This document shows positions 981 to 60,000 of a DNA stretch of 64,000 nt, piece by piece (within the stretch, counting starts at the first letter, position 1; the number at the start of each line of letters is the position of its first letter). Both the position numbers and the translations under genes were made by a program. The notes under the pieces were generated by a model. It searched no databases and was not told the origin of the DNA. It saw nothing but the letters and a program-made list of their open reading frames with translations. The stretch is from Blasia pusilla (taxonomy: Eukaryota): NCBI GenBank assembly GCA_050084515.1, contig CM114271.1, forward strand, positions 44,578,001 to 44,642,000, given 5' to 3'.

Positions 981-1045
981 CCACTCATTGAGCCTTACCC
1001 GAATTTGAAAATATATTTGAGATTATACTACAGGAATTGAGCCTT

Positions 1046-7615: not shown

Positions 7616-7717
<102 letters not shown>

Positions 7718-12942: not shown

Positions 12943-13479
12943 TGGAGGAGGCACACGTCCATGATCTTGACAAGTGCAATCGTGTTGATGATGGGCTCCA
13001 CCACATGACCAACAAGTAACAGTAGGCGGCTGCAAGTGAGCCGAATATGAAGGCGCAGGTCTCTATGGCACGGCCTCCCAGTATCCTCCCTGAGCTCGTG
13101 GTGCCACAGTCGACCTATCTCAGAGTCCACGTTGCTGCACATGTAGTGAAGGCAATCGTGATTGCTCTTGCCAAGAACCCGTGGTGGCTACGCTCTCCTC
13201 CGCCATGTTGCGCTCAATGTTCTCGGCGGTCCTAAAAACATCTCTCAACGTAGGGGAGGTGTTCATAAGAAGCACCCCCTCCCGCACTTGTGTCCGTAGG
13301 GTCCGGTCCAGCATCACGTACCATGACTGGATAGCTTGAGCCTCTGTCACCCCCTTAGTGACATTGATCAACCGACACAAGCGAGTGTGAGCCTCATGCA
13401 AACTCTCACCCGGGCGCCTCTGGAAGTCGTGGATGCTCCACAACTTCTCCGTCCGTACCCCCTGGTAGCTCGCCCTCAA
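12943..13479 (-). pseudogene. Gypsy gag fragment, 3' half; target of the 21-kb MULE insertion
   Basis: LRASYQGVRTEKLWSIHDFQRRPGESL... continues directly from ...VEFFAELRA at 34897. It is homologous to the gag at 43140-44117. Confidence 0.85.
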
Positions 13480-34508: not shown

Positions 34509-34896
34509 GGATGCAAAATGAGGTTTTAGATTGTACTTTCATTTTTCAAGAAACTTCACTTTTAGCTTGAACTCTATTCAGCCCAGGGCAAATGGTAGAT
34601 TGTTTCCAGACCTTGGATGGAAAAAGTGATTGGTTCCACACTTCTGATTCCACTGATTTTTCAGTTTTGTATATTTTGTGCAATTTGCAACCGGTCGGAC
34701 TCAGATGGGTTGCCAAAATATGGAAGAGAAAAAAAGAAGTGTGGGATTGCTTAATAACTGAGCAAAAAAGTGCAAAAAAATTCACACAAAAAGTTTCCTC
34801 TCTTCAACCCAACGGAAACTCTCTTAAAAAAATTTTATCTATTTCGGTTGAAGGTAGTTTCCTCTCTCCTCTCTTCCTCTCCTCTTACCGCACCTC

Positions 34897-35520
34897 CTCG
34901 CCCTCAACTCAGCAAAGAACTCAACCACGGGGTTGAACCTGGGACGAACCTGACTAGACGGTGCAACTGATCTAGTGCGAGTGACTCCTCCTAAAACATC
35001 ACTAGTGGAAGAGGAAGTAGCCTCTCCTGACTCCTCCTCCTCATCTGGGAACGGCTCCTTCCATGACACATAGTGTGGGTCGTAGTAGAGTCGCCATGCC
35101 TCAATCTCCTGCGCATATCTGTGGGAGAACTCATGGTAATCGTCCATGGGTGCCCCCTCTAAATGCTAGAACATATTATTCCATGTTGTAAACGGGTTGA
35201 ACTCTCTAGAGTTCCTAGCCCGCTATGAGTCACACCAACTCCTAAACTCTGTAACGAAGTCGTGTAGCTCTATGGTGCCTACTGCACCCGAAAACCTACA
35301 CGATCCCCTAGCCCGATCGTCCATCTCGTACGCCCAACTGGTAGGACCACTCAATGTGTATGGTGGATCACTAACACACTCCTCTACACGCTCCCCCTCG
35401 TTTAAAGATGACACAGAAGAAGATCGAGGTGGTCTCTCACGTGGAGACCTTCGAAACCTCGCACCACTCCGGGTAAACCCTCCGGAGCTACTCTCAGGTC
35501 CACTACCTCACCTCTCAAAA
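34897..35520 (-). pseudogene. Gypsy gag fragment, 5' half
   Basis: RFSGAVGTIELHDFVTEFRSWCD...LEGAPMDDYHEF...FNPVVEFFAELRA; homologous to 43140-43703 and 54400-55100. Confidence 0.85.
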
Positions 35521-38838: not shown

Positions 38839-41520
38839 ATGCGGATCCCTGGACCCCTCAACGTACCCAAATCATGCATACTAAATGCAAAACAACTCCT
38901 ATAACTCCTAAGGAACTGGTGTATCTGACGCCGGTCTCCTCTTGTCAACTTAGGGCCCATATCTGGCCCCCAAGTCTCCATCGTAACTCCAGTAGGACTC
39001 TCCGGCGCGGATATCGGTGGTTGCTTTGGTGCAACCCCGTCTTCGACAATAGAACTCTCATCTACATGTGTAGTACCCGGAACGGGGGTTGATATTCTGG
39101 TAGGAGAGAGTAAGAGAGGAGAGGAAGAGAGGAGAGTCTCTCTTAAAAAAAAAGGGCCATATCCGCCTCCTCTCTTAAAATTTTTTTGACATATTTGAAA
39201 TTTTTGTTTGCTTTCAAATTCATGAAATCTTTAGAAGAGAGTAGATAGTGGTCCATATTTGGCCCTAAAAAAACCTCCTTTTTCTTGGGGGCGAAAAAAA
39301 AGTAGACATCATAAGACCACTACAAACATTTTTCCATCACCCTCCATGTGAGCCTAAGTTTCTTAACATTACCTGTCTCGATCTACAATAAGCAATGCCC
39401 ATGGGTATTTTTGTTGGAGGACCACCCGGATGCCAACCTCTCTTTTTGCAGGGATTGTTGCCTGCATCATGGCCTCCCCTAAATTGCCCCATAACCAACT
39501 TTCTGTTGGTTATGAATGGTGTCTGCTCAAGACCAACTTTGTGAAATGTGAACACATGAGAGGATAATTGAACCAAAAGATTGTTAGCTGTCTGGAGTAA
39601 AGAGGAATTGATGTCCCTTCATTCAGATCCTAAAGCAGAGAAACCGAGAACCTGCACCCCTCCCAACCCGTAAGAAAGCTCATCATAAGAAAGGAAAGAT
39701 TTTTAGAAGTGATTTTCTTCCACCCTGCACCCACGACAATCTAACAGGTTGGGAATCCGAAATGGCAATCCGACAGGTAGTAGGAATCTTGCACAACTTA
39801 GACAAGAAAAGAAGCCTACAACTGGTTTGACGAATGTAGGGGAATGAGCCAAAAGTTAAGAAGCCCGCCACAATGCGACAAAAGTTGGTCTCACAGGGAA
39901 AGAGTCCGATCACTCAAGCATCCAACCTGTCGGAATCAGACACCTTGCCTGGAAATGGTTAAAAAGTTGCAGTGGGCAAAAAGCTCAAAGTTGCAACCCG
40001 TCGGAATCATACGGGTTGCAAAATTGTAATTCCGAGTAGCTAAAATAACACAATGCACTAGTCCCAAAAAAATTTCCAGCAAACTTTTACAAACACCATT
40101 GTCGGTTGAAAAAATCTCGACCTTTATTACCTCCGAAGGAACCTCGGAAATATACATTTGACCTAGTCTATGATTTCTTCAGCCTCGTCATCTACAAATT
40201 TACTCCTAACTCTCCTCGGAGACAGTACAAAAGGAATGTCTTGGGATACAAGTGGCTCCTCTGGCCAATTGTAGACGGGGATCGAAAATGTTGGCAAATT
40301 CGAGAGCCTTGGCCCCCCCCTAAGTATGCCATAACGGTCCCATGTAACCTGATTTGAGTCTCACCGCCTTCCTCGGCAGTATACCTTGTACGCTCTGCAA
40401 TGTGACACCCATCTAGTATCAATATGTGCTCTGTCCTTGGTAATACCATTATGGCAATCGCACAGGTGTAGTAGGAATCAACACGCGTCGAGAGAAGAAA
40501 AGAAGCCTAAACGTGCGCTTTTACGAGTTGAGGGGAAGGTGCCAAGGGAAGAAGCCCGCCAGACTGCCTCTTAAATTGGACCAACATGGAAAGAGTCCGA
40601 TCAGGCAACCTGCCGGAATCGGACAGGTTGCCTGGAAGTGGTAAAAAGGTGCTCTCGTCAAAAAGTGAAAAGTTGCATGCAGGAGAAATCCGACGGGTTG
40701 CAAAATAGAAGTCCGCGGAGTACATAGACGATCACATTCGAAAAGACATAAAAAATGTTCAGCAAACTTTTACAAGCACCACCATCGTTCGGAAAAATGA
40801 TCTCCTTTATATCATCCGAAAAAAGCTCGGAACTGTACATTTGATCTATTTTATGAAATCTTTTGCCTCATCATCAAATAACTCCCTACTCCAAACGCTG
40901 CAGTCAAGCTGGATCCTTGAGTTCTTTGAACTCACTCGTCATTGTGTGAGAGCTCTTGCAAAATTACTTTCGGCCTTGCCCTCCCGATTTTCGGAATCGT
41001 TGGAAGTGACAATGGAGTCACTACCAATGGTGGGTCTGGAACCGGAGCTCTCTCCTCTCTCCTCTCTTCCTCTCTTCCTCTCCTCTTACCGCACCTCTAC
41101 CCGGAAGGAACCACGCTCAATGATGTGGCTATCATCTTCTGGCCTACCTGTAAACCATCCCAAGAAGTCCAAGGGTGTCTCTCCCGATCACCCTGGTGTG
41201 TCGATGTCATTGGGTCTCGCCCCTAGCCAGTGCCTCAACCGTCTCGCTAGGCATGGGGGTCCCCAATGCAACTTTTGTGATGTGTCGTATCCTCAAGCGA
41301 CATTGCTCAGCTACTCCTAAGCTGAAAATCCATGTCAAGCAGACCGAAGACATGACGTCGTGATGCCTCCGATAGTGACGGTACTACCGTCACTCTTGTG
41401 GGTAATCCCATCGCTCGCTCTCACTCATTGGCATTGGGCTCCACCAACCTCTGTACTTGGTTATCCCAAACCAAGCTAGGTCCGGCCTCCTTGAATGCAT
41501 AGGAAGCGGGAAAACTCACT
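38839..41520 (-). pseudogene. Fragment of a second DNMT-bearing Gypsy (MTase C-terminus to pre-RT linker), interrupted by a 2-kb MULE
   Basis: VSFPASYAFKEAGPSLVWD..LVEPNANE*ERAMG and ETWGPDMGPKL..LRSYRSCFAFSMHDLGTLRGPGIRI parallel 51000-51630. Confidence 0.8.
39085..41097 (+). mobile_element. Non-autonomous 2-kb deletion derivative of the MULE
   Basis: Both family ends are present. The TSD is TACCCGGAACG (39074-39084) / TACCCGGAAGG (41098-41108), a 10/11 match. Confidence 0.92.
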
Positions 41521-43089: not shown

Positions 43090-44345
43090 CGTTCTTTCAA
43101 GGTTCGGAAGAACGGGGCAGTGCAAGCAGTAGTAGTGGTGTGATACGGAGTGGAGTGAGATACCGAGGGGTTACGAGCGAGGAGCTACCGCGACATCCAT
43201 CCGCGGCTGGATCATTATCACTAGACATCGGGTCTCGTGACGAGATCGCAGACGGAGGCAGTATCACTTGGCAGGAGATGGACGACATGGGCCATCGGGG
43301 CATACGTCGTTTCTCGGGTGGAGTGGGCACCATCGGCTTAGATGATTTTATCCAGGAGTTCGACATGTGGTGCGACTTCCAGGAGATACGGACCCCGACA
43401 CGGTTCAACCCTTTCATGGCATGGAAGGGGTTGTTCCAGCACTTGGAGGATCCTCTGATGGATGATTATATGGAGTTTCGATCACTATATTCACTAGAGA
43501 TCGATGCCTCGAGGATGTATTGGGCTCCAAGGTATGTGTCCACTAGTGGTCACGAGGCATATGATGGGATCGTGAGAGGAGATATACCCACACCATCAGG
43601 TCGGAGACTAGATGGAGAGGAGGACTCTGAGACAGGCAATGTGGCAGAGACCTCTGGTGGTCGAGGGCCATCCAACTTCAGTCCCACAGTGGAGTTCTTC
43701 TGAAAATTGGGGAAGAGCTATCAGGGCGTACGCACCGACAAGCTGAAGAGTCTACATGATTTTCAGCGACGATCGGGTGAGAGTCTGAAAGAGGCATTCA
43801 CACGCATGAGGACGCTGATCATTGCTACGTATGGAGTGACTGAGGCGCTGTCAGTCCAGTATTGGTACGGGGTTTTGGACCGAGAACTACGGAGGAGAGT
43901 CCGAGATGCGGTGGTGATTCACATAGCGAAGCCCACATTGAAGGTGGTTTTTGAGTTGTCTAAGCGTATTGAACTCAACCTGAGTGAGGAGCAGGTAGTG
44001 ACCGCTGGATTTTCTCGAGAGTCAACGGGTCCTGGCGGCGGTGGATCGCACATGTGCCGGCGAGCACCGTACCACGGGAGCGGGCAGTGTGCCGGAGAGA
44101 GCGAGGCGTCATCGTGAGCCTATGAGGCAACAACCTGTTCCTACATATGTTGCCCAACAGGGACCGATGTTGTCTTGTTAGACGTGTGGAGGAGCCCATA
44201 GGCAGAGAGACTGCACACAGCATGGGAAAGGACCACGAGCGGCTCCGATTGCTCAAGAGCCAGAGAGGATGGCCCCACCACAATACCAGTGTGACTACTG
44301 CCACAGATATGGTCACACTAGGGATAGAGGTTTTGACCTTCGTCA
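43090..44345 (+). pseudogene. Gypsy gag with CCHC-type knuckle (same broad family)
   Basis: ORFs 43140-43703 and 43707-44117 are separated by one stop codon. A degenerate knuckle YQCDYCHRYGHTRDRGFDL follows. Confidence 0.82.
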
Positions 44346-46192: not shown

Positions 46193-47307
46193 GGTCATCC
46201 ATGATCTATTGAGCCTATTCTACACCAATCACGAAGGCGCTCTACTAGATCTCACCGATCTATCCTAAAAGACGTGACATGCTCTTGTTTATGAGAGGAT
46301 TGTGGCTCATTATAGTATAGGTGTTCATGAGAGGGTCGTCACTCATTATAATATAGATGTTGTAAGGGTTTGAAATGATGCCATGTCGGAGAGCTTCCTA
46401 GCATAAAATGAAAAAAGTTGCCAAAAATCATCGAAATAAATACTTTTGTCGAAAATTTCTTATATTGAAACGTTGGTGGAATTAACAAGATTCGTAGTCA
46501 AATTCTGCAATATAGTACCCTTATCTCTGGAGAGCATTTCTTCATATGGGTAGCATGTGTCTTTATACAAACCCCACAAGGAAAAAAACATTTGAGGTTG
46601 AAAATTCAGCTAAGGACAAGCAAACAACACAGTTGAAATAACTAAAGAATGGTAGAGGGAGGTTGTGTGAGAATCATAACTATTGTTCCATCATATTACG
46701 ATGTTAAGAAATTTCATATCGATATATGTTTAATTTTTGTGACTTGAAACTCTTTCATGTTACTACATTGCAAAAAATTGAGTTGGTGAATCATAATCTA
46801 GTGCGTATGTGAGCCTAGCACAAAGATCCACATCTAGAACTCATTAATGAGAATGGTTAAAAAAACCATAAATTTTTAGTGTTTTACATGATATAATTGA
46901 GTCAACGAGAGCTTTACTTTGTGTCAAAAGTAAGCAAATAATTTTCTTGTGGAAGCTTTTGGGATGACAGTCTTCATCCACCATTCTTAAAGAAGTCAAA
47001 CATCGATTGCAACACCAATAAACAATTTTAGGTGGTAGATATGGTTTTTTATTCACAAAATGGATGAAGTCCAACCTATCACCATTTACTACACAAAATG
47101 GGAAGGAGGAAAATCCTTCTCATTATCAGATATCCTAAATATCTTGATCGGTTCATCTGATCAAACTCCAAAAGTATGGAATTCAACGAGTACTTCTTAG
47201 TTGATTGCAAGAAGATTTTGGTATAAGTTTGTAGATTGCTCTAAGTGGAATGTATGTCTGTCTAACTATGTTCAATGGCATTCAATACAATAGAAAGTAG
47301 TAGTAGT

Positions 47308-47414
47308 TGTTGTGCGAATCCACATCGTCATACAACATACATCGTTGACATACCATACTCACATACGTACATAACATAGACGAGAGTATCCACAAACGCA
47401 AGTGTACCACAACT
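47308..47414. repeat. Repeat A, terminal copy (107 bp)
   Basis: Identical to 47784-47890 except for one substitution that I can see. Confidence 0.96.
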
Positions 47415-47416
47415 GG

Positions 47417-47781
47417 AATCCGTGAAAGACCTACTGTCATAAAACACGTTTACAATCACATACAATCGAGCCAAACCCACTCCACGATGGGAGAATCCAG
47501 GTCGAAGCTTGCGGGAAACACCATAGCCAAGAGCTCTACTCACTACCAAGGCTAACTCCCAACGCAACAGGCTCAACTCAAAGAATCGACTATTCTTTGA
47601 GTGCACTCCACCTTATATCCTCCAACTTAAGAGCGGGCCCTACTGGGAAACTCACCCCCAACTGAGTAACCCCCAACCCTATGTATGGAACCGCATCTCT
47701 ACCAAGCCACTACGGTCCTACATAAGGAATGTCCTCTACTAGCACACTATACTCTACGACATAATCTGTATGGTCATGACA
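47417..47781. repeat. Repeat B, internal copy (365 bp)
   Basis: Matches 56731-57095 with about 8 substitutions, counted by eye. Confidence 0.96.
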
Positions 47782-47783
47782 GC

Positions 47784-47890
47784 TGTTGTGCGAATCCACA
47801 TCGTCATACAACATACATCGCTGACATACCATACTCACATACGTACATAACATAGACGAGAGTATCCACAAACGCAAGTGTACCACAACT
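47784..47890. repeat. Repeat A, internal copy (107 bp)
   Basis: Direct repeat of 47308-47414, joined to B through ATGACA-GC-TGTTGTG. Confidence 0.96.
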
Positions 47891-48064
47891 CGCCCCCTAA
47901 TGGCGGTTAGGTCCTCTAACTCCCAGGTAGCCCTATACATCTACTACATGCTATACACCTTCTTGGGTGCCCGAATCGAAGGCCGGGTGCTAGGTTGCCC
48001 CATCGTTAGTCGCACATCCGTAATCCATATCATGCAAAGATCAAGTCATCTACCTCTCCTAAGT

Positions 48065-48198
48065 ACATCGAGGACAAACCCACCTTCCAAAGAGGAACGA
48101 CATCCAAACGTGGAGTCAAACACATCATGTGCCAACCCCTAGAACACCGATCACACACCAACATACGGGTGCGTTACAGCAGACCCACACAACATGCA
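48065..48198 (-). pseudogene. PHD finger at the integrase C-terminus (not in the ORF track)
   Basis: Manual translation across two frameshifts gives CMLCGS...MLVCDRCSRGWHMMCLTPRLDVVP.GRWVCPRC, a complete C4HC3 pattern. Confidence 0.88.
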
Positions 48199-48299
48199 CC
48201 TCAAGCTAGCACGTATCATGGCTAAGCTTGGGTCAACAAGATACCATCCACATTTGGAAGATGACATGGCGCACAATTACGCAATGGTCCTTCCAAACA

Positions 48300-49400
48300 A
48301 CTCCATCACGACCCTCCAATATGAGAACTCCAGAAGCTAACACCTCGCGACTCGTAAAATAGTGCGGCTGCCGTCACATCCAACGTTGTCGGGGCAATCT
48401 GCTGCAAATAGACATAGTCCCCACATGGAACCTCTAATCGATGGTCGATAACCTCCACCTCGAATGGTTGCATACCGCAACGTATCCTGTGTTGAACAAT
48501 GGCAAGATTCTCAAAGGTGTTGGCATAACTCTCCGAAAGAGCTCCGCCGCTGAGAACACACCTCATCCACATCTCGGGTCATCAAGGTTCACCACCTCAC
48601 TAGACTCCCGACAATTCTTGCTTTGGCAAGTCCGGATCTCGGCCGTATATAAAAGTAAGGTGAGAAGGAAGCCAAGGATGCTTGGCGGCGAACCTATACC
48701 CCATGGCTAACCATGGCAATCTGAATATCCGGTCTCAAGATGCCCCCCCTTCAGAGGGCCATACTTGCGCAATGCCCTCTTCACCGTCTCAACCACACGC
48801 TCGGCCAAACCATCCGCCTCTGGATGATCTCGAGACGTGGTCCGATGATCAATCAACGCCTTGTCACACAAGACCTGAAACTCACCAAACTCAGACGTAC
48901 CCTGGTCAAAGACTTCAGCTGGTGCACCAAAATGACTAAGCACTCTATCCGAAACGCATACGCCGTTCCTCACTCGCCTTGTCCGGTAATGCCACCAACT
49001 CAATCCACTTGGAGAAGTGCTCCACCATCACCAACACATATCGATGATGTAAATAGTCAACCAGCATTAACGGTCCCGCAAAGTCCACACTCCAACGGTA
49101 ACCCAACCCCATAATAGGCAAGGGGTGTAATTGTGGTGTAGGGGCATTAAATGATGCCCTCACCCGGTCACAAACCATACAACGTGACACCAACTGATGC
49201 ACCTGAGTATGCATGCCACGCCACCAATCTTGGCCAAGGAGTAAGCTATACGACGCTTTACCCCAAAATGTCCCAACTCCTCATGGGCATGTCGCACAAT
49301 GCTCTCTCTCGAGCCAAATGTGGCACTACTCGTACTCTACTATCCTCCCACACGCGGAGAATATGTGTTCCCTCCAATCGATACCTCTTAGCACGTTGAA
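48300..49400 (-). pseudogene. Retroviral-type DDE integrase
   Basis: VSRCMVCDR (zinc domain), LHPLP..GLGYRWSVDFAGPL, FGAPAEVFDQG.EF and DHPEADGLAERVVETVKRAL. Confidence 0.93.
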
Positions 49401-49689
49401 GAACACGGTCTCGCTCCTTGGCACTCACTATGCCTGGCACCCTACCGGTCCGTAGGAACTCCAACACCAACGCATCATCATGAATATCACGCTGATCTGT
49501 ACCACCATCTCCAACCTTAGGATCGAAGGTGGCCATCTACCCTCGACTAGAGTAAGATATCATGTGGTCCTCCATACTAGAGTCCACCCCTAACCAACAT
49601 AAAAAGGCGGATGCATGCCAACCTGGCACCATCTCCTCATCAACCTCGCCATGCCATCTAGCCCCTGTTGTATCCTCTTGGCTAGTACA

Positions 49690-51000
49690 TGGGTTCCTAC
49701 TCAACCCATCAGCATCAAGGTTGGCAACTCCAGGTCTATGTACCACCCGGAAGTCATACTCTGTAAGATAAGAGCCCACCGTGCAAGCTTCCTGTAAGCT
49801 TGTCCGACTCCATCAACCACTTGAGCGGTTGGTGATCGAGAACAAGGGTAAATTGGGTGCCAAACAAGTAACACCTAAAGTGTGCCATGAGCCCACACTC
49901 TTGCCAAGCACTCTCCCTCATATGAACTATAGCGCGACTCCGCTGCATTATTCGAACGACTTGCATAGGCCACCACAAACTCCATGTGCTCATCATCATG
50001 TTGTGTCAACACCGCTCCAAGTCCCAACCTACTCCAATCAGTGTGTAACTGAAATGGGCGCCCTCTGATAGGTCTCCTCAAGATAGGCGCCGCCACCAAC
50101 TGGGCCTTAAGCTCCACAAAAGCTCTCTCCTGATCATCTCCCCAGTGCCACTCTTGATATGATTTCAGCAATTGGTTCAAAGGCTTTGCCATAGCACTAA
50201 ATCCCTTCACATACCTCCGATAGTAGTTCGCCAATCCCATGAATGCTCGAACTCTACTCACATCTATCGGACGCGGAATAAGTGCAATAGCCTCCACCTT
50301 TGCTTGCTGAACTCCCAAACCACCTGGATAGATCACATGACCCAAGTACTCAACATCCTCATGGAAGAACTTACACTTTCCTGGATGCAAACGTAGACCA
50401 TGAGCCTTCAACCGCTCAAACACCATCTGCAAATGTATCGATGCTCCTCCACCGTGTTATTCTTGAACACCAAGATATCATCAATGTAACAAGAACAAAA
50501 TCCAACCCCTGCTAGGATCTCCGTCCATCACTCTTTGAAACTTCGGCAGGTGCATTCTTCAACCCAAAGGGTAAGAATTTCCTTTGGTACAAACAATCCT
50601 TGCCATGAGAGTTGACACCCCAAAATCTTGTCTTGGCCTTGTCACTCTCCCGAATCGGCAATTGATGGTATCTGCCGAAGATCAAAATCTTGAAAATCTT
50701 TACTGTCCCACCACATCAAAGATCTCCTCGGTGTAGGCATGGCATACCTATCGGCCTTGGTTTTCCGATTGATAGAACGGTAATCTCCACACATCCGCCT
50801 ATCCGTGTAGTTGCCATGCATATCCTTTTTAGCGAGGCATGACAATGGTGATGCATACTCTCCATGCGACAACTCCACTAATCCGCCTCCAAAGGTCCAA
50901 CGCCCTACTGAATCAAGTCCCTCTCCATATCACTATATCGGTAGGGACGACGGAAGATTGGCGTATCACTAGCCAAATCAATCCGTATACCGGGTCCAAC
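49690..51000 (-). pseudogene. Reverse transcriptase and RNase H (Ty3/Gypsy)
   Basis: RMCGDYRSIN..DRYAMP, LPFGLKNAPA, YIDDILV (~50470), LHPGKCKF..VEYLGH, LHTDWSRLGLGAVL, DHQPLKWL and RPGVANLDADGLSR. Confidence 0.96.
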
Positions 51001-51379
51001 CAGAGAACCCAACTCCTTCATGCTAAAGGCCAAACAACTCCTATAAGCACGTAGGAGGCGTGTGTCAGCGTCGTTTCTCACCTCCCGTAGCTTGGGCCCA
51101 AGTAATGGCTCCCAAGTCTCCTCCCTTTGGCACACTAGAGGGGAGGGGCGATGCCATTGGTCTGCTCATAACCCCCTCACAAGATGGTACACCCTTAGCT
51201 ACACCATCATCGAGCAAATAACTCCTCCACCAAAGCATGAGCAACCAACTCCACATGCCCGACCATTACATCCCATTTACTCCAAGGATGCAAAATACTA
51301 CTCTCCTCGCCTTGGCCGATGCCTCTACCGTCCGGTAGCCATCGAGCTCATTACAAGGGGTGGAAGACCCCCAGACATA

Positions 51380-52401
51380 GTCCGAAGTCGACGCATTTTG
51401 CTCGGCCATACCAAGACTCAAAATCCAAGTCAAACAATTCAGGTCCATGGCCTGACCCAACACATGATGTCGTGAAGCCTCGAAATAGAAGCAACTGGGC
51501 ATTTGTCACACCGAGAGCAAATCCCATCGCACGCTCTCTCTCATCAGCGTTAGGCTCCACCAATGTCGCACATGAGAATCCCATACAAGCCCCGGACCAC
51601 CTTCCTTGTAGGCATGTGACGAGGGAAAACTCACAAATGTGGGTAGTGCCATCCTAGGCTAGCCCACACGGTTCACCTTGCCATGGGTGACCGATCAATA
51701 ACCCTCACCACTTGAGAAAGTCGCCCAAAGATATCAAGATACTATCCTTTGTAAAGCGAGGATCGCACCGCATCATATGCTCGACGTAGAACCTCCCTAG
51801 GCAACAAGTTTGTCCACCACAAGCGTGGACGATGTGCACGCGAGCCAACTCGCGCTGCATCCAACAACACCACTGGTCCAATCCAAGACCGCACCTCATG
51901 AACACTCGCCATCATCCGGGTTCGAGTGTCACCCAACAATGGAACATTCTCCAGAATGTAAGCTAGAGCACGTGTCTGATGAACCTGAAGATGTCGTAAC
52001 ACCCGTAACATCTCCCAAAACAATCGAGACCTAGGGTCATGTAATCCCTCACCACGACCAGCACGTGTATGACCCTGACATGGCCATCCAGCAATCACCA
52101 AATCCACAGGACCAACCCTCTCAAGGTCCTGCGCCCCCAACAATGCAATGTGTGATGGTAAAGCACGCTGGTACCCACGAATAGCTGATGGCGGCAACAA
52201 CTCAGGATATCTCCGCATCAACTGACCAATATGTCGGGATGAGACTCTCTGGGCCGTCTCATCTCGCTCCACATACACGTATCTCCCATGACAGAATACC
52301 GGCTGCAACATCGCCGCCAAACCGGTGCTAATCCCACCAAAGAGATCTAACACACAAATGCCCTCCGCGGATCTTTGCCATACAATGGGTGTAGTATCCA
52401 A
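51380..52401 (-). pseudogene. C5 DNA cytosine methyltransferase domain (DNMT3-like) inside pol
   Basis: Motif I is VLDLFGGI, II is YVERD, IV is AGWPCQG, VI is ILENV and VIII is RAHRPRLWWTN. IX (EPNADERERAMGF) and X (RHHVLGQAMD) follow after frameshifts. Confidence 0.93.
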
Positions 52402-52849
52402 AGGGGATAACCAACTGGGCAGAAGTAGGAGTCCGCCGTGGGGCGTCCTCTTCCTCGTGAGGTATATGACCTCACACCAAGCCTCTGCACTAGGCGATCA
52501 CCCTCTGCCGTAGTGCACCGCTGAACTCCAAAGTGGCACATCCAACGATGAGGATGCCTTTGCTGCAAAAATAGGGACCTCCTCTACCTCCTCATGCGCA
52601 GGAGAATCCATAGCGTAAAACATTACCCTCCAAAAAGTCTCTGGCCAAGTGACTACTCCACTAAAACCAGCCACAGATGCTAACATGCTTTGTTGGGGAG
52701 ACCCTCTGGTCGAGCCCCATAAATAAATCTCATAGGAACTTGGCTCATACGTCCATCCCGGACTGCCAACCAGGTCTCAGAAGATTTGTCTCGACCCGAT
52801 AATCCATCCGAAAACCCATCGGGTACAATAATCATCGCTCCTCCAACTA

Positions 52850-53200
52850 GTACATCATACGACTCGGTGATGTGACTATCGTGAGATACTCCCAACCGGG
52901 AGCTATCGGTCGCATGATCTGGTCTCAAATCAGAAAAACTTTTCCCGTGTCATGAATTGAGACCTATCATTGGCTCCTCCAAGTGATGTTTGAATTTGGA
53001 ATGGGCAAGGCTCAAGCTCTGACCTCCGAATACCCAAACCAATACATGCCGCCTTTCCCAACATCAAAGGTTGGGCACGAGAGTCTAACAAGACTCTATC
53101 TGGTCTATACACCTGTCCTGTAGGACTCACCAATCGGAAGATCCCACTCCGGTTGTCCAACATACATACACCAGGTGTAAGCCTCTCACGATCAATGGCT
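52850..53200 (-). pseudogene. Aspartic protease
   Basis: RVLLDSRAQPLMLG is a DSGA motif with G replaced by R. A downstream YDVLVGG is also present. Confidence 0.75.
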
Positions 53201-53959
53201 GGCCGGGCTGGTAATGCATCCATCTTCGCCGCTGCTGCCTGCCAAGTAGCATTGGTACTCAATGCTACTCCTGACATAGAGGGTCGCTCCACCGCAACAC
53301 CCTCATCCACCTCAACACGTGTAGCAGTAACACCCCCACGTTCACACAACGTGGCTGCTAACTAAAATACAGGAGCTAAGTCAACTCCTAAAGCCATCAG
53401 CTCCGTGGCCGGAAAAAATGGGGATCCCAACACCGAAATTGCCATCCATAATCTTGTATTGAATCTTTGCATCCGTGTCTACTACACGCGATGTAGATGC
53501 CTCAGTCCCCACTGTCGGCTCAATAGGCTGCGTAGGAACCATGGATGGAGTCCTAAGCACCTCAGACAACAAGAATGACTGGGGAAGCCTAGCTTGCCTC
53601 CCAGCCTCACCCCTCTGTGGGTCCAACTCCTGAAGAGCACCACGTGGCTCGACGCTCGAGTGGCTCCTCTCAGAATCGCGGTGATGCCTCACCTTTGTCT
53701 TTGCACTCGCCATATAAGAGAGATCATCCCCTCCATAAGAGGTGGAAGCCCTTGCTCCCGAACCTGATCTATGCTCGATACCGACCATAGTAGCCAACCT
53801 GCTCCAATCTGCTCAATCTGGCAGCCATAGGCGACTTGTCGAGTGGTAGGGGTAGCCACCGTAGGCTCTCCAACCACCTGGTCCACCTCTACCACCCCTA
53901 CCACCTCTACCACCTCGGCCTCTCGGAGCTACTCCACCACGGCCACGGCTTGATCTCAA

Positions 53960-55200
53960 CTCGGATGGAGATCAAAGCAACGCTCTCGAGGATGATCTAG
54001 TCTCCGCAATGATCACACTTGAGTTGGGGCCGACGAGGCCCATCCTCCAAAGTCCGTCTCCCATCCTCTTGGGGACAAAACTTCCTAACATGATCACCTC
54101 CACATGTCCAACATGATCGCCCTTGGGGCAGCAAATGAAGGCAATGGTCTCTGCACAAATGTCCCTCTAGGACTTGACGAGGTCGCGTGTACCCCCACGA
54201 CTCCCACTACTACTACCACCACCACTACTACGAGACTGTGGTGAGGGTGGGTGCTGAACCGAGAAGTAGTAGTTGTATCCCTCTTGAATGCGGATGTCAC
54301 CACTCTCTCCTTCACCATGTTAAGCTCAATCTTCTCGAGATAAAGCAAACACATGGGTCAATGTGGGTGAATCATCACTCATAAGAGTAGCATCACGTAC
54401 CCCTACGGCGCAAATCTCTGTCCAAGATCCTGCATTAAAATCGATGCTGATCCTCGGTCACACCAGGTAATCGAAATCAGCGTCGATACAGTGTATGCCT
54501 CACGAAGACTCTCACCAGTCTTTCGCTCAAAGTCTGAAGATTCCTCAACTTCTCCGTCTTCACTCCACGATAGTTCTTCTTCAACCTCTTGAAGAACTCT
54601 CGCAACCGGGCTGAACGATGGTGGGGCACTAGTACCTCCACTAGTACCCCCACTAGTACCTCCACTTTGGTACCCCCCACTCCGGCTCGTACTGCACCAC
54701 TCAACGTCGGGTTGGTGGCATAGTAGGAGCACTACTACCAATACCACCATGGGTGATAGACACATAGCCTGGAGACCAATATTGTCTCCATGCCTCAATC
54801 TCAACAACATGGTCCTTCCTAAACTCATGGTAATCATCCATGGGTGGTCCTTCCAAGTCTTTGAAACAACCCCTTCCAAGCCAAGAAGGGTGTAAACAAC
54901 GCGTGGCGTTCCGCAACACATCGCATATCACACCACGTATCAAACTCTTGCATGAAGTCCTCCAACTCAATGGTGCCCACTTTGCACCGAGTATCGTGGT
55001 GGGCCCTTCATGGCCCCATATCCACCGTCCATGTCCCAAATCAATGGAGCGCAACACTCGATAACAACGTAGAAGACTCGGTGTTTGGAACACCCTGGTC
55101 CTCCTCTTCATCAACCGTCGGAAGTGGAAAAGGTAGCCGATACCTAAATCCAATCCGTGTGAAACCACCCTTTATCCGCACCACGGTCCCCAACGAGACC
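53960..55200 (-). pseudogene. Gag with CCHC zinc knuckle
   Basis: LEGPPMDDYHEF, REFFKRLKKNYRGVKTEKLRNLQ, and a KCDHCG..DHPRERC knuckle near 53975-54020. Confidence 0.82.
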
Positions 55201-56730
55201 ACCCGACAGCTACGTGATGACCAACGCCGATGCCGCACCACCACCAAATTACCCAAGTGACGTCGATGTCGCTCTACTATTGTAGCTCTACTAGCTATGG
55301 GTGTAGGCAATCTAACCTCTCATCACCACAAGAAGTCTCCCCACGTCTCATCTGGTCATCACTCCGGCCTCACTATCGTGAGCACCACAGGAGTAACACT
55401 ACTCGGAAATCAGCGTCAACCCTAACAATGGGCGCAAGCAAAAAGCACGATGGAGGGGATCGCATACAGAAGTCCAACGACAACCCTCCAACCGCAAATG
55501 GAAATCAAGATAACACAATCCACCAAACGTGGTGCCCCCTGAATCCACAAAACCCACCACACAATTCTAACGCAATAGCTACTCCGCCGCGGGTCGATGA
55601 CGTGCTAGTCGAACTCGCAGCACCTGAAAATATCACTTGCATGGAGAGGCTACACCGTACTATGCGCTAGAGGTACATCAACCAAAAACCTGAGATGCAT
55701 AAAGCGCCTAACACATCTCCAAACACCACCAAATGAGCTACAACAGTCTGTACACTGGCATAGTTAAGAACTCAGCAGTTAAGCGTCCTCTAGGCAGAAG
55801 AGCCCAAAGATGGGTGACCAGTTATGCAAAACTCAAATCCCAAATCCTGCAAAAATTGCCTCACGCCCAAGCAAGCAAGCTTGCTTGCTTGCTCCTTGCT
55901 CCTTGCTCCTTGCTCCGCCTCTCACGCCCACTCGCCCCGAGCTACCACGAGTTGCCTCAAATGCTCGAGACATGCCCCTATCGCCCCGTTCCCCACGCTT
56001 CGCCATGCTTCGCTATGGAGAGAGGTCCAACCAGGGCGCCCCCAATGGGATAGGCGTCTCCAACAATGAACGAGTCACCAACCAACCAGCCCCTCCGATC
56101 CGCTGTCCACCATAGCCAAACCTTGAGCTAGTCCGCGAAATTTCGATCAGAAATTACTTCACAAATACGTGACCGAAATCAAATCTATTTCGATCAGAAT
56201 TCAATTGACCACCATAGCTATCTCCCCACAAAAACTCAGCTACAACCAAGCTCCGTACTCTGAGCTAAAAATCAGACAAACTTGCTGTCCATACACCTCT
56301 AGAACCGCAAATCCGACAGCGCTTCCGCCAAGTTTCATGCACGCAGAAATCCGCAACGCTCCACGCACTCGAGCAGATAGCTTCACATGAGATCACAATA
56401 CAAGTAGCAATAGGAACCTCTCACCTGATCTGGATGAACTTCAACAGAGCTTCCGCACTCCAAGCTCTCCACATCAGAAAACTATCGAACACGAACCAGA
56501 ATCTTCAATGCTTGATAACTTCCAACTCCCTTGACGAAATCGGCGATCTACAGCACGTTGGAAAGCTCTCAGCAAGGCGCTTCTTTCCCAACTGACCACG
56601 CACCTGATTCACACCTCCAGCATAGGCAACAAGCCCCGAACATCCACGGCTGAGTACACAATCAGCCCTAACCAGATCCTACTGATCTACAATCGAAGCT
56701 ACCATCGATCTACTCCAATTCTTTGAGTGA

Positions 56731-57095
56731 AATCTGTGAAAGACCTACTGTCATAAAACACATTTACAATCACATACAATCGAGCCAAACCCACTCCACG
56801 ATGGGAGAATCCAGGTCGAAGCTTGCGGGAAACACCATAGCCAAGAGCTCTACTCACTACCAAGGCTAACTCCCAACGCAACAGGCTCAACTCAAAGAAC
56901 TGATTGTTCTTTGAGTGCACTCCACCTTATATCCTCCAACCTAAGAGCGGGCCCTACTGGGAAACTCACCCCCAACTGAGTAACCCCCAACCCTATGTAT
57001 GGAACCGCATCTCTACCAAGCCACTACGGTCCTACATAAGGAATGTCCTCTACTAGCACACTATACTCTACGACATAATCCGTATGGTCATGACA
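56731..57095. repeat. Repeat B, terminal copy (5' end of the element)
   Basis: Matches 47417-47781 and ends ATGACA|TAGT. No adjacent copy of repeat A. Confidence 0.96.
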
Positions 57096-60000
57096 TAGTC
57101 TCCTTTCTACACCTTTTTATGCTACATTGTTCTAGCCACATTAGTAGAAAAAAATTGATCTCTATGCAAAACTACCACTTAGGAGATCTATTGTGAACTT
57201 AGGTAGTGCTAAGGTTTAGAGTATAGACCATTCCTATCTTTTACCATTCCCATAATTTTTGGCCAATTCAAGGCATCACATGTGGTGACTAGCATTACAA
57301 GACTAACTCTGAAAACTAAGCCTCTTCTTAACTTGCACCAATGACTAGTAGAGCATGAAGAGTTAATTTGTGGGACAACTTCAGAGATTAAGGTATAAGT
57401 ATTTCATCACAAAAAAATTCAACTCGATTGATCATGTCAATATGGATGGAACATTAGTTAGAGGTCTTCTTGGTTTAGTCCTCGTCCTCTTTTTCTTATT
57501 GAGAACTCTCTTTCTCACACAATAGAAATTGGCACAACTACATCATCATATATTTCCATTGTTTCCACAAATCATAATACGTTCTTTATCAGGTGTTGGT
57601 TTGGAAAACTAGAATCTCTTAGTGCTTAAATGGGTTGTGGGAGAATAGCCACATTGAGATGGAGAATACATCAATAGACTGTTGAAACATTTCTTCTATC
57701 AAAATCCAATCAAGAGTCAAGTTACTCCAAGGAGTTGTTTAGAGCATAATGGAGCACGAGAAAGATTGAATGTGTTGGACCTAGTTTGATCTAACTAGGT
57801 CTAACACAACAACCTAGCTTATTACATGGGCATTCGAGGAGTCCAACCTATTCTACTCGAAAAGCCCAAGGGTCTTACCAAGGCTAATACTGATTTTGCA
57901 TCGAACAAAAGAACATGCCTAGCTATTGCAAGGAACTTATAGACGTGAAAATTAATCTAAAAAACTTTGGAATATGATCGCAAGGACAATTACGCACCTA
58001 AGGGTACAAAAGGGTTCTACATGAAGGATTCTCCACTCTTGCAAAAATGGAAAAAAAAAAAGGATTGACTACCACTTATAAACCTGAACCAAGGGACAAA
58101 TTGCTTATCTCATATGGAAATACCATAAAAAAAAGGAAATGAACGATATGGGTGGTGGTTATATTCGTTAGATGATCCAATAACCACTAACATTAGTGCC
58201 AAAGTACTAGAACAAGTAAATAGGATGCATAAAATGAAGTTATTATTGTAGTTGGAAACTAATCATGTTGCTTTTTTTGCATTTGAGGCCTAACCACTCT
58301 TGGAAAACCAATCAACTTAAAGGGTCAGCCTATTGTTATGCAACAAAAGGTAAAGAAGGACCAGCAAGGCAGGAAAATAACTTTGTAAATGGTTGTATGG
58401 GATCCAATGGGATCTCTTCTTCGAAGTCAATCAGATGAAAAAGATATTATTATATGGCACATATGGAACTGGGTTTCGGTTACTCAAGGCAAAAGGACCA
58501 TGGGAAAATGCACTTGCATTCAGGTTTTTCCTACATGAGGCTTGGTTTCCATATGGGGGTTTCATTTCAACAACTTATGGGTTCTAGGAACCAACTTATA
58601 TTAATTATACTAAAATAGGAGATTGGTGAATATCATTTGATTTTTGGTGGGCTCAACACCATAATAGTTGCAATGACAAATAAGCAATGTTTCAAGGAGG
58701 GTCTGACACCAAGAATATGATGGTGCATGCTTCCAACAACAATGTGCTCTTTGCTAGTCTGATTCCATGTTTGCAATAGTTAGAACCTATGAGAAGGCCT
58801 AAACATTCATGAGTGCACTCTAGAACCTTCACAAGACATTCACAACCCAGGTTGCTTGCTACCTTGTGAGAGCATTTTGGTTCAATGAATTATGTATGTA
58901 ACAGCATGTTGGGAAATTTTTAGTCATGTTAAGTCACTGTATCCACATTAGATGATCCTCTATTATTCATGCACAAGAGACACTCAAGTTGAAGTACAAA
59001 AAATATGAGATTGGAAAGCCTCCAAATGTGTACAATTAGAAAACACTTGTTTCATTGTGGCGACACGAAGCTGATGTTGTGGATATTGGATGGTCCCTAG
59101 ACAACTCCATGGTTACAAATGGAGTTTAAACAAGAATTTTTTGGTTTCCTAGTGGTTTCTATGTTGTAAAATATTGAAAATATTTTAGATCTCCAAGGCC
59201 ACCATTAACTAGTAATTTGAAACACATGGTACCCTTAGACTAATCTTGTGTCAGGCTTGTAACCATAGACTTGTACTAAGCAGATAGACAATGTGACCCT
59301 TTAGAAATTAAATGATCAATACATAGGGTACTTGCTAAAGAGATAACATCTATGTTATTTAAACTCTAGCTGCTATGTCTACGAGTGCATAGTTAACATC
59401 TACTTATACCTTCCTCATCTTTTTAGAATATTTGAATTAACTTTCATAGGCTTATCATCATTTGGATGTATAAACAGACTTCAAAATTTTCCAAAAGGCA
59501 CTTGAGTAGTATGATCCTAACAAGCTACATTTGGCTTTGGTAGAATCTATAAGCCCACTGAGAAAAATTCAACACAATGATCTCCAAGTTCAACTACTCA
59601 AGGAAGGTACGCATGTGGGCTCCATCATAATTTATGTGGCTACTTCCAAGAATAATAAATGAAAGCTTTATCGACCTAAGATATATTGGAAACAACTCCT
59701 CATCAATGTGTGAGGGTGTGTGGCTAAGGTACATTCAAAAGCTTCTAAAGAGGGGTGCTACTCATAAACTTTGAATATAATGTCAAAGAATAAGGTTTGA
59801 TTTGTCTCACTTTGTGAAATTCAAAGGACTATAACGTCGAGCGACATACAAGTGTAACCATATGGAGTGATAATTCAAAGGGATCCCACTACTCCACCCA
59901 CTTCAAAGCAAGCTTCTTAGATCCTATAAGAAGGAAGTCCAAATTTTATGTCGAGAGTAGATTGGATTGGCATTGAAGCTATCCATACAACAAAGTTAGG

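Follow-up and report, generated by a model that had tools for sequence, protein, structure and literature searches.

Introduction

Retrotransposons that carry a DNA methyltransferase of their own were described in 2018, with published cases from a dinoflagellate and a filamentous alga (PMC5890265), and what such enzymes do has been a question since then. KnitGypsy-Dnmt3 of Klebsormidium nitens has DIRS-like repeats and domains that are typical of Gypsy elements (PMC5890265, Fig. 4c legend). SymbioDIRS-Dnmt3 of Symbiodinium is a tyrosine-recombinase (DIRS) element, in the authors' view the product of an independent capture, and its enzyme is given there as the only one of this kind with demonstrated de novo CG methylation, in yeast (PMC5890265). 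For the Klebsormidium enzyme, the yeast assay showed no methylation, a result that the authors call inconclusive, and the human DNMT3B control was likewise inactive there. De Mendoza et al. further raise RNA as a target of LINE-borne enzymes as well as effects on the host methylome. The survey table of that study contains, among non-seed land plants, only Physcomitrella and Selaginella; liverworts and Sphagnum lay outside its sampling. In the corresponding passages of other sources (PMC12344493, PMC11982613, PMC10952607, PMC6453930, PMC5784723 and the preprint 10.64898/2026.05.21.726589), the only hosts cited are 'streptophytes' or Klebsormidium.

Here, we analysed a stretch of 64,000 nucleotides from Blasia pusilla (contig CM114271.1, positions 44,578,001 to 44,642,000), referred to as the window, in which all coordinates below are counted. 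The starting point was an earlier note that described a DNMT3-like domain in a retrotransposon and mentioned DNMT-bearing elements of dinoflagellates and charophyte algae, in agreement with the record for dinoflagellates and the charophyte Klebsormidium (PMC5890265). Compared by description, the element family in the window appears to be kin in kind to KnitGypsy-Dnmt3: shared features are a non-rearranged methyltransferase of the DNMT3 type, free of introns, in a Gypsy coding region, Ka/Ks values below 0.2 on this domain, a DIRS-style repeat arrangement together with Gypsy-like domains, and a streptophyte host. Unlike in KnitGypsy-Dnmt3, the hosts are land plants (liverworts and Sphagnum). SymbioDIRS-Dnmt3 also has a retrotransposon-borne DNMT3-type enzyme, but differs in its recombinase, its dinoflagellate host and its presumed separate origin (PMC5890265). 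The kind of element is already known from de Mendoza et al. (2018), and our analysis concerns its anatomy, hosts and expression strategy in this family.

Results

A decayed Gypsy-type element in the window

A decayed Gypsy-type retrotransposon of 9.8 kb (9788 bp) spans positions 47308-57095 on the minus strand, on which all features described here lie. Pfam searches and tblastn comparisons with relatives gave the domain order gag, protease, methyltransferase, reverse transcriptase (RT), RNase H and integrase. We assign a probability of about 85% to the joint reading, identification and anatomy together, that this copy is a dead Ty3/Gypsy-type element with a pseudogenised methyltransferase.

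In element orientation, the copy is preceded by the target-site duplication ACTA (57096-57099), which pairs with the same four bases at 47304-47307 on the 3' side, and begins with the terminal repeat A1 (56731-57095, 365 nt, starting with TGTCATG). The decayed gag-like region (53962-55032) matches residues 1-352 of the Marchantia protein P0001 in several frames (tblastn) and contains a CX2CX3HX4C zinc knuckle near 54075-54113, as read from the three-frame translation. The aspartyl protease region was located by tblastn and motif at 52900-53445; its active-site motif reads LLDSRAQP (53068-53091) where relatives have LLDSGAQP, a change from DSG to DSR, and even in the intact relative L041 the protease is matched weakly by Asp_protease_2. 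The methyltransferase domain (51380-52401) is followed by a degraded junction to RT, where a TGA in the RT frame (51166-51168) lies one base off the family's conserved TAG in the alignment. Contigs from the window's own source organism carry TAG-CAG-CCA at this junction, with loose ends at 51170. The frameshifted RT (50438-51138, tblastn with P0008) contains YIDDI at 50474-50488, and the end of its domain is covered by RVT_1 in an ORF at 49875-50456 with 26 bits, below the cut-off of 29.6 bits. RNase H (49764-50456) is matched by RT_RNaseH_2 (E 5.7e-25) and RT_RNaseH (E 3.5e-15).

The frameshifted integrase (48758-49767), comprising the zinc-binding H2C2 and DDE core parts, was located by tblastn with P0008 and P0045, and the ORF at 48945-49280 gave weak matches to Integrase_H2C2 and rve, both below their cut-offs. 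At the integrase C-terminus there is a PHD-like zinc finger (48120-48155, motif CDRCSRGWHMMC), and Pfam detects PHD with E 2.6e-10 at the matching place in ORF2 of L041. A polypurine tract (47891-47898) lies directly upstream of the internal repeat B1 (47784-47890, 107 nt, ending in CACAACA), and a G-run occupies the equivalent place in L023, L037, L054 and L061. After two further nucleotides follows A2 (47417-47781), which is 97.8% identical to A1, and the 3' end is formed by the terminal repeat B2 (47308-47414), 99% identical to B1 and also ending in CACAACA. Protease, methyltransferase, RT and integrase are all broken, and tblastn revealed many further frame changes across pol.

A second, fragmentary methyltransferase piece from another decayed copy is present at 41157-41519. 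It comprises the C-terminal region around motifs IX-X, contains stops, and shows 40% identity to P0001 over 124 aligned columns (tblastn, E 8e-17; 59% over 59 residues) and 75% identity to the main copy (blastn). The window as a whole is rich in repeats, with fragments of other copies and 66 ORFs of at least 130 amino acids; a Pfam match was absent from the five of these ORFs that were tried. Among the sequencing runs listed for this sequence, none is recorded as RNA. Short contigs from three runs that were guessed to be RNA, and that may include DNA, covered 28, 23 and 25 of the 30 bins, the methyltransferase among them, at a depth of 5-13.

The methyltransferase domain and its assignment

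The stop-to-stop ORF at 51742-52497 (251 amino acids) matches Pfam DNA_methylase (PF00145; E 7.2e-10, 39.2 bits, cut-off 22), and the intact relative L041 reaches 51.1 bits. The earlier note had proposed this check on a frameshift-corrected consensus, the place of which was taken here by the ORF itself and naturally intact relatives. Its motif reading was borne out in coordinates and order, including the intact PCQ and ENV: motif I (LDLFGGISTG, 52321-52350), motif IV (GWPCQG, 52072-52089), motif VI (ILENVP, 51940-51957) and motif VIII (HRPRLWWTN, 51808-51834) are followed by motif IX (EPNADERERAMGF, 51519-51557) in a second frame and motif X (VLGQAMDLNCLTW, 51425-51463) in a third. The putative motif II (YVYVERDE, 52258-52281) is labelled by position only. 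This order along the gene (I, IV, VI, VIII, IX, X) is not circularly permuted as it is in DRM. Relative to P0001, the domain has acquired in-frame stops at 51742-51744 and 51659-51661 and three frame changes, near 51677-51679, near 51565 and between about 51519 and 51500. Hence, the window copy contains no open, translatable methyltransferase gene at 51380-52401. Across 61 diverse sequences, conservation is highest in the columns of the catalytic residues: the cysteine of motif IV and the glutamate of motif VI are invariant, and at least 90% of the sequences retain the asparagine of ENV and the arginines of motif VIII.

Ranking against solved structures by sequence profile and by fold classifies the enzyme as DNMT3-type, as the earlier note had proposed. 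A single-sequence phmmer search of the PDB returned DNMT3A first (E 1.7e-8), with M.HaeIII at 1e-3. In the profile search, DNMT3A scored 2.4e-20 (76 bits), followed by tobacco DRM with 2.8e-11 (46 bits), M.HhaI with about 1e-7 (34 bits) and DNMT2 with 1e-3 (21 bits). The DRM chains align to the profile only via their C-terminal half, and none of the 56 PDB matches at E≤0.01 in this search was titled DNMT1 or chromomethylase (CMT). An AlphaFold2 model of the relative P0004, built from a 61-sequence alignment, reached a pLDDT of 85 and a pTM of 0.82; an earlier model from 8 sequences (pLDDT 51) was set aside. With the P0004 model as the query of a fold search, DNMT3A, 3B and 3C alone made up the best 50 ranked matches, with target-normalised TM values of 0.79-0.83 for catalytic-domain chains and E-values down to 2.7e-18. 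The animal enzymes share the order of motifs I-X and a target-recognition region that is short compared to bacterial enzymes. In contrast to them, the family shows only 19-22% identity, has no PWWP or ADD domain, is preceded by gag and protease, and spaces motifs VIII and IX by about 100 residues, compared to about 50 in DNMT3A. In a protein atlas, the domain fell into generic PF00145 clusters only, the first of which was mostly Streptophyta.

Position in the polyprotein and a conserved stop codon

The window's own junction between methyltransferase and RT is scrambled by indels, and the coding layout given here is that of relatives. L041 has two ORFs of 1369 and 1047 amino acids in one frame with a single TAG between them. 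Pfam finds Asp protease and DNA_methylase in ORF1, and RVT_1, RNase H, Integrase_H2C2, rve and PHD in ORF2. In L041, as in about ten gene models (1250-1380 amino acids), gag-protease and the methyltransferase form one in-frame fusion, and the methyltransferase has no introns in the elements. Among the 57 loci with a usable match to the RT start, 37 have an in-frame stop at most 60 nt upstream of it (26 TAG, 11 TAA), and in 36 of these 37 the stop is followed by CAR-YYN. Variation in the two codons that follow the stop stays within this pattern: CAA-CCC occurs in 29 of the 36, and the full CAR-YYA in 6. The context of the largest subfamily is CAA-CCC and hence not the full CAR-YYA.

A readthrough stop ahead of the replication enzymes is also found in gammaretrovirus gag-pol. 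In tobacco mosaic virus, UAG followed by CAR-YYA serves as the signal for readthrough, which reaches about 10% in vivo (PMC2754532). The junction resembles this signal in TAG-CAR with two pyrimidines and in the long conserved frame behind the stop, but it differs in belonging to a retrotransposon, in following protease and methyltransferase rather than Gag, and in showing the full YYA in only 6 of 36 copies. By its context, the conserved stop would thus be of the leaky, tobamovirus-like type. As the methyltransferase ends the gag-protease frame before such a stop, it would be made with Gag and not in the low amounts of Pol. This dosage does not extend to the whole family, since the most distant group (20 loci) has no stop between methyltransferase and RT, and in L050 a single frame of 847 amino acids covers both. 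The earlier note had placed the domain between protease and RT within pol: the position stands, whereas a continuous pol does not, because the domain closes the gag-protease frame and is followed by the conserved stop. For the same reason, packaging with pol has to be revised for the window's clade, where the enzyme would be a Gag-side product.

Repeats and termini

Split direct repeats in the arrangement A1...B1-A2-B2 are present in the window and in L023, L037, L054 and L061 (4 of 9 loci examined, the others being incomplete or without such a pair). The 5' end bears repeat A alone, and B follows the polypurine tract inside the element and recurs at the 3' end. A plain LTR layout is absent: no two identical long terminal repeats flank the internal region. 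A1 and A2 of the window copy differ at 8 positions, all of them transitions and 4 at CpG. The termini are of the TG...CA type (TGTCATG...CACAACA). Perfect 4-bp target duplications were found in 4 of 5 copies examined (the window, L054, L037 and L023), and L061 matches in 3 of 4 bases. Inspection by eye of the sequence after A1 revealed no clear tRNA match for a primer-binding site. The A1-B1-A2-B2 order with its internal pair near the 3' end is also seen in PAT/Ngaro tyrosine-recombinase retrotransposons (PMC4157794), from which the present elements differ by their DDE integrase, TG...CA termini and 4-bp target duplications. Pfam scans of L041 did not detect a tyrosine recombinase.

Family size, hosts and phylogeny

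Searches for the domain yielded 14574 representatives of 50%-identity clusters at E≤1e-3, 2676 at 1e-10 and 514 at 1e-30, and each of the best 150 representatives belongs to the element family. There were 58 longer proteins among the relatives. Metagenome contigs contributed 196 related stretches, of which 80 were taken as loci. A stop-free frame of at least 428 amino acids over the methyltransferase was found in 7 of the 80, and most copies are dead. The 514 clusters, the 196 metagenome stretches and the second fragment at 41157-41519 make the methyltransferase a feature of the family and not of a single copy. In intact relatives it is open and in frame, in contrast to the out-of-frame or single-copy domain that the earlier note had named as a possible outcome.

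Organism names were attached to 23 of the 120 matches listed, and all 23 are liverworts or Sphagnum (Marchantia, Riccia, Calypogeia and Sphagnum); a Klebsormidium record was absent from these named matches. The element family is therefore large and resides in bryophytes, both liverworts and peat mosses, and for bryophytes the suggested extension of the range to land plants holds. This range, the leaky stop and the family size appear to be unreported in the literature searched, which did not cover subscription journals.

A second architecture dominates the same methyltransferase family, namely polyproteins of the order RT-RNaseH-methyltransferase-integrase-PHD from metagenome and EukProt records; a word-index search with P0054, which has the methyltransferase between RNase H and integrase, gave 63 relatives. 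The methyltransferases of both forms are homologous (36-40% identity, E 1e-20 to 1e-31), and both forms have Gypsy RT, RNase H, integrase and PHD. They differ in the position of the methyltransferase, which lies between RNase H and integrase in 91 of the best 150 representatives compared to 13 of 150 with the protease-RT position of the window. The methyltransferase tree, inferred with FastTree only, comprises domains of the element family and is unrooted. In this tree, one branch separates the two positions, corresponding to a single change, and the branch uniting the protease-methyltransferase-RT type has a support of 89. The window domain belongs to a clade of nine rows with Marchantia polymorpha proteins (support 67), enclosed by clades with supports of 96 and 100.

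Selection

The comparison of dN/dS across copies that had been proposed as a check was conducted with the Nei-Gojobori method (NG86) and revealed purifying selection on the methyltransferase of intact relatives (dN/dS 0.11-0.14). Values for the domain were 0.139 for L040-L041 (dS 0.26) and 0.108 and 0.128 for two pairs with L046; dS exceeds 1 in most pairs, and L040-L041 is the only unsaturated one. Between L041 and L046, the protease (0.145) and the methyltransferase (0.129) are similarly constrained, compared to 0.44 in the flanking linker and 0.36 in the tail. The strongest constraint in the element is seen in ORF2 (0.059, dS 1.2). Since dN/dS is low in the ORF1 domains as well as in ORF2, both sides of the stop have been selected while the stop was kept. 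The dead sister copies L003 and L007 evolve neutrally (dN/dS 0.94).

Discussion

The observed layout suggests the following expression scheme for the window's clade. Gag, protease and methyltransferase would be translated as a first frame, which is closed by the conserved TAG and CAR-YYN, with RT, RNase H, integrase and PHD in phase behind it. Most ribosomes would end at the TAG, which would make Gag-protease-methyltransferase the main product, and a minority would read through and supply the replication enzymes. The particle would then incorporate the methyltransferase in amounts similar to those of Gag. We tentatively favour the element's own new cDNA, or its fresh insertion, as the most likely substrate of de novo methylation, although we hold this at somewhat below even odds.

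Two alternatives concern the coding structure. The methyltransferase could be foreign to the element, be it as a host DNMT fragment captured by one copy, as a nested insertion or as an assembly chimera, and the frameshifts in the region and the repeat-rich window with its fragments of other copies would fit such an origin. We consider it highly improbable, because the same domain occupies the same place in 13 of the 150 best representatives, in gene models of Marchantia, Calypogeia and Sphagnum and in the 80 metagenome loci. The in-frame fusion to gag-protease in L041 and about ten gene models, the lack of introns and the purifying selection within elements likewise speak against it. With the domain taken as an integral part of the element, the conserved stop could still be a true terminator, with RT-RNaseH-integrase obtained by reinitiation, splicing or supply in trans. 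The CAA-CCC context of the largest subfamily, which falls short of the full consensus, would be compatible with this. However, ORF2 begins in phase directly after the stop and requires no start codon, in copies separated by more than one synonymous substitution per site. The strong constraint on ORF2 (dN/dS 0.059) and the restriction of post-stop codons to CAR-YYN point in the same direction, which renders a terminator rather unlikely compared to readthrough.

The enzyme may be active on a target other than the element's own cDNA, for instance host chromatin, rival elements in trans, a mark at the insertion site, or RNA. Production on a par with Gag could leave a large share of the enzyme free in the cell, and both an RNA target and effects on the host methylome have been raised by de Mendoza et al. 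(PMC5890265). Schmid et al. (PMC5784723) list five DNA methyltransferases for Marchantia and the list includes no DNMT3, which would leave a niche for such an activity. The best sequence and fold matches are to DNA-acting DNMT3 and not to the tRNA enzyme DNMT2 (E 2e-20 compared to 1e-3), and most copies are dead; we therefore see another target as unlikely, albeit as the most serious competitor to methylation of the element's own DNA. Alternatively, the domain might have been kept as a DNA-binding or tethering module after loss of catalysis, in line with the negative yeast result for the Klebsormidium domain (PMC5890265) and a motif VIII-IX region of about twice the DNMT3A length. This is about as improbable as a terminating stop, given that conservation among 61 sequences peaks at the catalytic residues and that dN/dS of the domain is as low as that of the protease. 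The yeast result itself was equalled by the inactive human DNMT3B control (PMC5890265).

A wider scheme can be built on methylation of the element's own cDNA. In it, a Gypsy lineage would set its own epigenetic state by means of a Gag-fused DNMT3 at capsid-like dose, in-particle methylation of cDNA and integration from a circular two-LTR-type cDNA, and it might contribute de novo methylation to liverwort hosts. The circular cDNA would be opened by the DDE integrase at a palindromic ...ACA-NN-TGT... site within one LTR, which would account for the split direct repeats, the TG...CA ends and the 4-bp duplications. The combination of all these parts is speculative, and we regard it as a long shot. 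If it were true, liverworts, with a Marchantia list that lacks DNMT3, may get de novo methylation from such elements.

Cytosine methylation is the main route by which plants silence transposons, which makes a transposon with its own de novo methyltransferase a paradox. The dinoflagellate and the filamentous alga in which such elements were described are hard to manipulate. Liverworts and peat mosses, among them the genetic model Marchantia polymorpha, harbour elements of this kind widely and in diverse forms, which makes the question accessible to ordinary plant genetics and methylome studies. In addition, the leaky stop would yield a testable prediction on dosage, namely that in the window's clade the enzyme is made with Gag and not with Pol.

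A decayed Gypsy-DNMT3 copy

The earlier note had described DNMT3-like C5-methyltransferase motifs in order, with PCQ and ENV intact, within a pol region (51380-52401); the surrounding Gypsy-type element spans 47308-57095 (minus strand). A Pfam scan matched PF00145 (C-5 cytosine DNA methylase) to a stop-to-stop open reading frame (ORF) of 251 amino acids (51742-52497, minus strand) with 39.2 bits (E 7.2e-10; cut-off 22 bits). This frame contains motif I (52321-52350), motif IV GWPCQG (52072-52089), motif VI ILENVP (51940-51957) and motif VIII (51808-51834), while motif IX (51519-51557) lies in a different frame and motif X (51425-51463) in another again, all on the minus strand. The observation was thus correct, but the gene of the window copy is dead: measured against the Marchantia model P0001, it is interrupted in frame by stop codons at 51742-51744 and 51659-51661 and shifts frame three times. 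Many further frameshifts are spread across the element.

On the same strand, a gag-like region and an integrase surround the methyltransferase, together with a protease whose active-site DSG is changed to DSR (53068-53091), a reverse transcriptase (RT) with YIDDI (50474-50488), an RNase H (Pfam E 5.7e-25) and a PHD-like finger (48120-48155). The element in the window is real but no longer alive, and it belongs to an already known kind, Gypsy-DNMT3. The PHD finger closes the integrase here and in the metagenome locus L041 (5086-8226; Pfam E 2.6e-10), at the position where many plant Gypsy elements have a chromodomain, and the same finger occurs in elements of the RT-RNase H-methyltransferase-integrase type.

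Type of the methyltransferase

Single relatives searched against all solved structures had DNMT3A as their best match (E 1.7e-8 and 1.9e-6) and 3B and 3C as the next, with bacterial enzymes, DRM and DNMT2 far lower. A profile built from eight family sequences again ranked DNMT3A first (E 2.4e-20, 76 bits), ahead of tobacco DRM (E 2.8e-11, 46 bits), Arabidopsis DRM2 (E 1.6e-9), M.HhaI (E about 1e-7, 34 bits) and DNMT2 (E about 1e-3, 21 bits); no chain titled DNMT1 or chromomethylase appeared at E<=0.01. A first structure model was poor (pLDDT 51). The model of the related protein P0004 from a 61-sequence alignment reached pLDDT 85 and pTM 0.82, and its top 50 fold matches were all DNMT3A, 3B or 3C, with target-normalised TM values of 0.79-0.83 to catalytic-domain chains at 19-22% identity. 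Furthermore, DRM enzymes have a permuted motif order, unlike this family. Sequence profile, predicted fold and unpermuted order thus bear out the DNMT3-like assignment, which is well supported as a ranking against solved structures.

Position in the polyprotein and the stop before RT

The 150 best representatives were sorted by local domain probes. The enzyme was placed between RNase H and integrase in 91, of which 35 were complete from RT to PHD finger, and after the protease or before RT, as in the window, in 13; the other 46 were methyltransferase-only pieces. In a FastTree phylogeny of 234 domains, the protease-methyltransferase-RT type formed one group (57 rows, support 89), and a single change suffices for the two positions.

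In L041, ORF1 (976-5082, 1369 amino acids) carries the methyltransferase together with a zinc knuckle and an aspartyl protease. Only one TAG (5083) stands between it and ORF2 (5086-8226, 1047 amino acids), which runs on in phase and matches RVT_1, RNase H, Integrase_H2C2, rve and PHD. Loci L046 and L040 are built alike, and the Marchantia models P0001, P0005 and about eight others of 1250-1380 amino acids stop roughly 100-135 residues past motif X. The position between protease and RT stood, but not its description as part of pol, as the enzyme closes the gag-protease frame in L041, with a stop before RT.

Among 57 loci with a usable RT-start match, 37 have an in-frame stop at most 60 nt upstream of the RT start (26 TAG, 11 TAA); TAA would be the expected outcome of G-to-A decay of TAG. 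CAR-YYN directly follows the stop in 36 of the 37 (CAA-CCC in 29, full CAR-YYA in six), and no locus in the junction tally has a sense codon at the stop position. According to the accessible text of PMC2754532, CAR-YYA after UAG is the leaky-stop signal of tobacco mosaic virus, with about 10% readthrough. The window junction is disturbed by two additional bases, and its TGA is displaced by one base from the TAG of the family; contigs from the same organism read TAG-CAG-CCA at this point. Contigs of the presumed RNA runs X12 and X13 part from the window at 51170, exactly at the methyltransferase-RT junction, and read Ala-stop-Gln-Pro-Met-Ala-Ser; sister copies thus keep the junction that the window copy has lost.

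The 20 loci left over are all members of the most distant group (for example L050:3710-10290, L054:3629-8373 and L061:3951-8720), in which the methyltransferase frame is open into RT; in L050 a single ORF of 847 amino acids spans both. Here gag overlaps pol at an offset of one base and closes with a conserved TGA-GGG-CYC, which looks like a classical -1 frameshift instead of a leaky stop. Recoding strategy would thus vary within the family.

Purifying selection

The dN/dS comparison across copies suggested by the note (Nei-Gojobori, NG86) gave low values for the methyltransferase domain: 0.139 for L040-L041 (dS 0.26), 0.108 for L040-L046 and 0.128 for L041-L046 (both dS about 1.3-1.4; 0.129 for the latter with slightly different bounds). 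Values for L003/L007 versus L021 were 0.17-0.19, near saturation, and the two dead sister copies L003 and L007 gave 0.94. Between L041 and L046, gag showed 0.116 (saturated), the protease 0.145, the linker before the methyltransferase 0.44, the tail 0.36 and ORF2 0.059. With 0.129 versus 0.145, the methyltransferase is conserved as carefully as the protease. That ORF2 is kept despite the stop ahead of it argues, at the level of sequence, for readthrough.

Repeats and ends

Repeat A (365 nt; 56731-57095 and 47417-47781) and repeat B (107 nt; 47784-47890 and 47308-47414, either side of the second A), on the minus strand, form pairs of 97.8% and 99% identity. Read along the element, A1 is followed by the coding region, the polypurine tract, B1, 2 nt, A2, 2 nt and B2; A starts with TGTCATG, B finishes with CACAACA, and ACTA flanks both ends. 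The same layout was found in four of nine loci examined (L023, L037, L054, L061), the remaining five being incomplete or without such a detectable repeat pair. The 4-bp duplications are perfect in L054, L037 and L023 and agree at three of four bases in L061. PAT and Ngaro elements share this 'split direct repeat' layout (PMC4157794, accessible part), but here the integrase is of the DDE type, the ends are TG...CA and the target site is duplicated. For KnitGypsy-Dnmt3, de Mendoza et al. describe DIRS-element repeats alongside domains of the usual Gypsy kind (PMC5890265, legend to Fig. 4c).

All nine differences within the window repeat pairs are transitions, four of the eight in repeat A at CpG sites, and CpG observed/expected is 0.72 over the element, as would be expected if a methylated insertion were in decay.

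In the window (47308-47898 and 56731-57095) and in L023, L037, L054, L061, L041 and L046, the polypurine tract implies an LTR reading B then A, whereas the integrase logic (TG...CA, 4-bp duplication) implies A then B. The B-to-A joint, ...ACA-NN-TGT..., is a near palindrome resembling a two-LTR circle junction, and circular cDNA opened at this joint would fit the layout. The intact-looking L041 (1-9317) carries 3' of ORF2 the polypurine tract, B and the first part of A, with no second A detectable 5' of ORF1 in this stretch; similar GC-rich sequence lies at both contig ends.

Copy number and hosts

The domain is no one-copy accident. The 251-amino-acid ORF retrieved 58 longer proteins (best 71-77% identical); many are gene models of Marchantia polymorpha, while Calypogeia fissa and Sphagnum supplied others. 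With a methyltransferase profile, 14574 cluster representatives passed E<=1e-3, 2676 passed 1e-10 and 514 passed 1e-30; each of the best 150 scored E<4e-72. Scanning metagenome contigs yielded 196 related stretches, 80 of them kept as loci, only seven with a stop-free methyltransferase frame of at least 428 amino acids. The window itself holds a second methyltransferase fragment (41157-41519) as well as pieces of gag and RT from other copies; those of gag or the RT start (12955-13551, 34881-35309 and 38790-38987, minus; 43278-44340, plus) share 32-59% protein identity with Marchantia and Sphagnum models, so that the window is a nest of such elements from the same or related families. In one DNA run, 236,279 contigs match the element at >=90% likeness, covering 30 of 30 bins, so the family must be highly abundant in the organism sequenced. 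Air metagenome runs gave shares of 0.15-0.20. An unrelated repeat family has three copies in the window (1749-3783, plus; 15360-17373, minus; 31714-32748, plus) with ORFs of up to 345 amino acids; the three that were scanned (2925-3623, 16023-16778, 31714-32748) had no Pfam match. A GA-rich simple repeat at about 7560-7720 (plus) encodes an alternating Arg/Glu run within two overlapping ORFs.

The earlier note had raised a possible range extension, should the host be a land plant, and the named relatives agree. Of 260 proteins at E<=1e-20, 120 matches were listed, and the 23 among them with organism names are all embryophytes, specifically bryophytes: Marchantia polymorpha (13), Calypogeia fissa (5), Sphagnum troendelagicum (2), Sphagnum tenellum, Riccia sorocarpa and Marchantia paleacea (1 each), with no vascular plant or Klebsormidium among these 23. 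The window domain groups with Marchantia polymorpha proteins (FastTree); its host is probably a liverwort. In the accessible material of de Mendoza et al. (PMC5890265), the supplementary table covers only Physcomitrella and Selaginella as non-seed land plants, and the text does not mention Marchantia, moss or liverwort. Later papers, in their accessible parts, repeat 'streptophytes' with that citation (PMC12344493; preprint 10.64898/2026.05.21.726589), and the available text of Schmid et al. lists five Marchantia methyltransferases, none element-borne (PMC5784723). Our literature search, subscription journals lying outside its coverage, turned up no earlier description of such elements from bryophytes.

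Proposed working and significance

Building on what is demonstrated (the domain with its type and place, a conserved stop followed by a frame under selection, the make-up of repeats and ends, and purifying selection), we propose that the default product would be Gag-protease-methyltransferase, and that a minority of ribosomes would pass the stop to make RT-RNase H-integrase-PHD. The enzyme would thereby enter particles at Gag-like amounts and may methylate new cDNA or the new insertion. In the accessible text of PMC5890265, de novo CG methylation is shown only for a dinoflagellate DIRS-borne DNMT3; in the yeast assay, neither the enzyme from Klebsormidium nor the human DNMT3B control produced a signal. 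The purpose could be camouflage, cDNA protection, steering of chromatin state or self-restraint, all of which are discussed there by de Mendoza et al.

What makes the finding valuable is the bryophyte, and thus land-plant, range of the family, including a genetic model, its great diversity and the two positions of the methyltransferase in the polyprotein; in the clade of the window element, a conserved stop of the leaky type places the enzyme on the Gag side.
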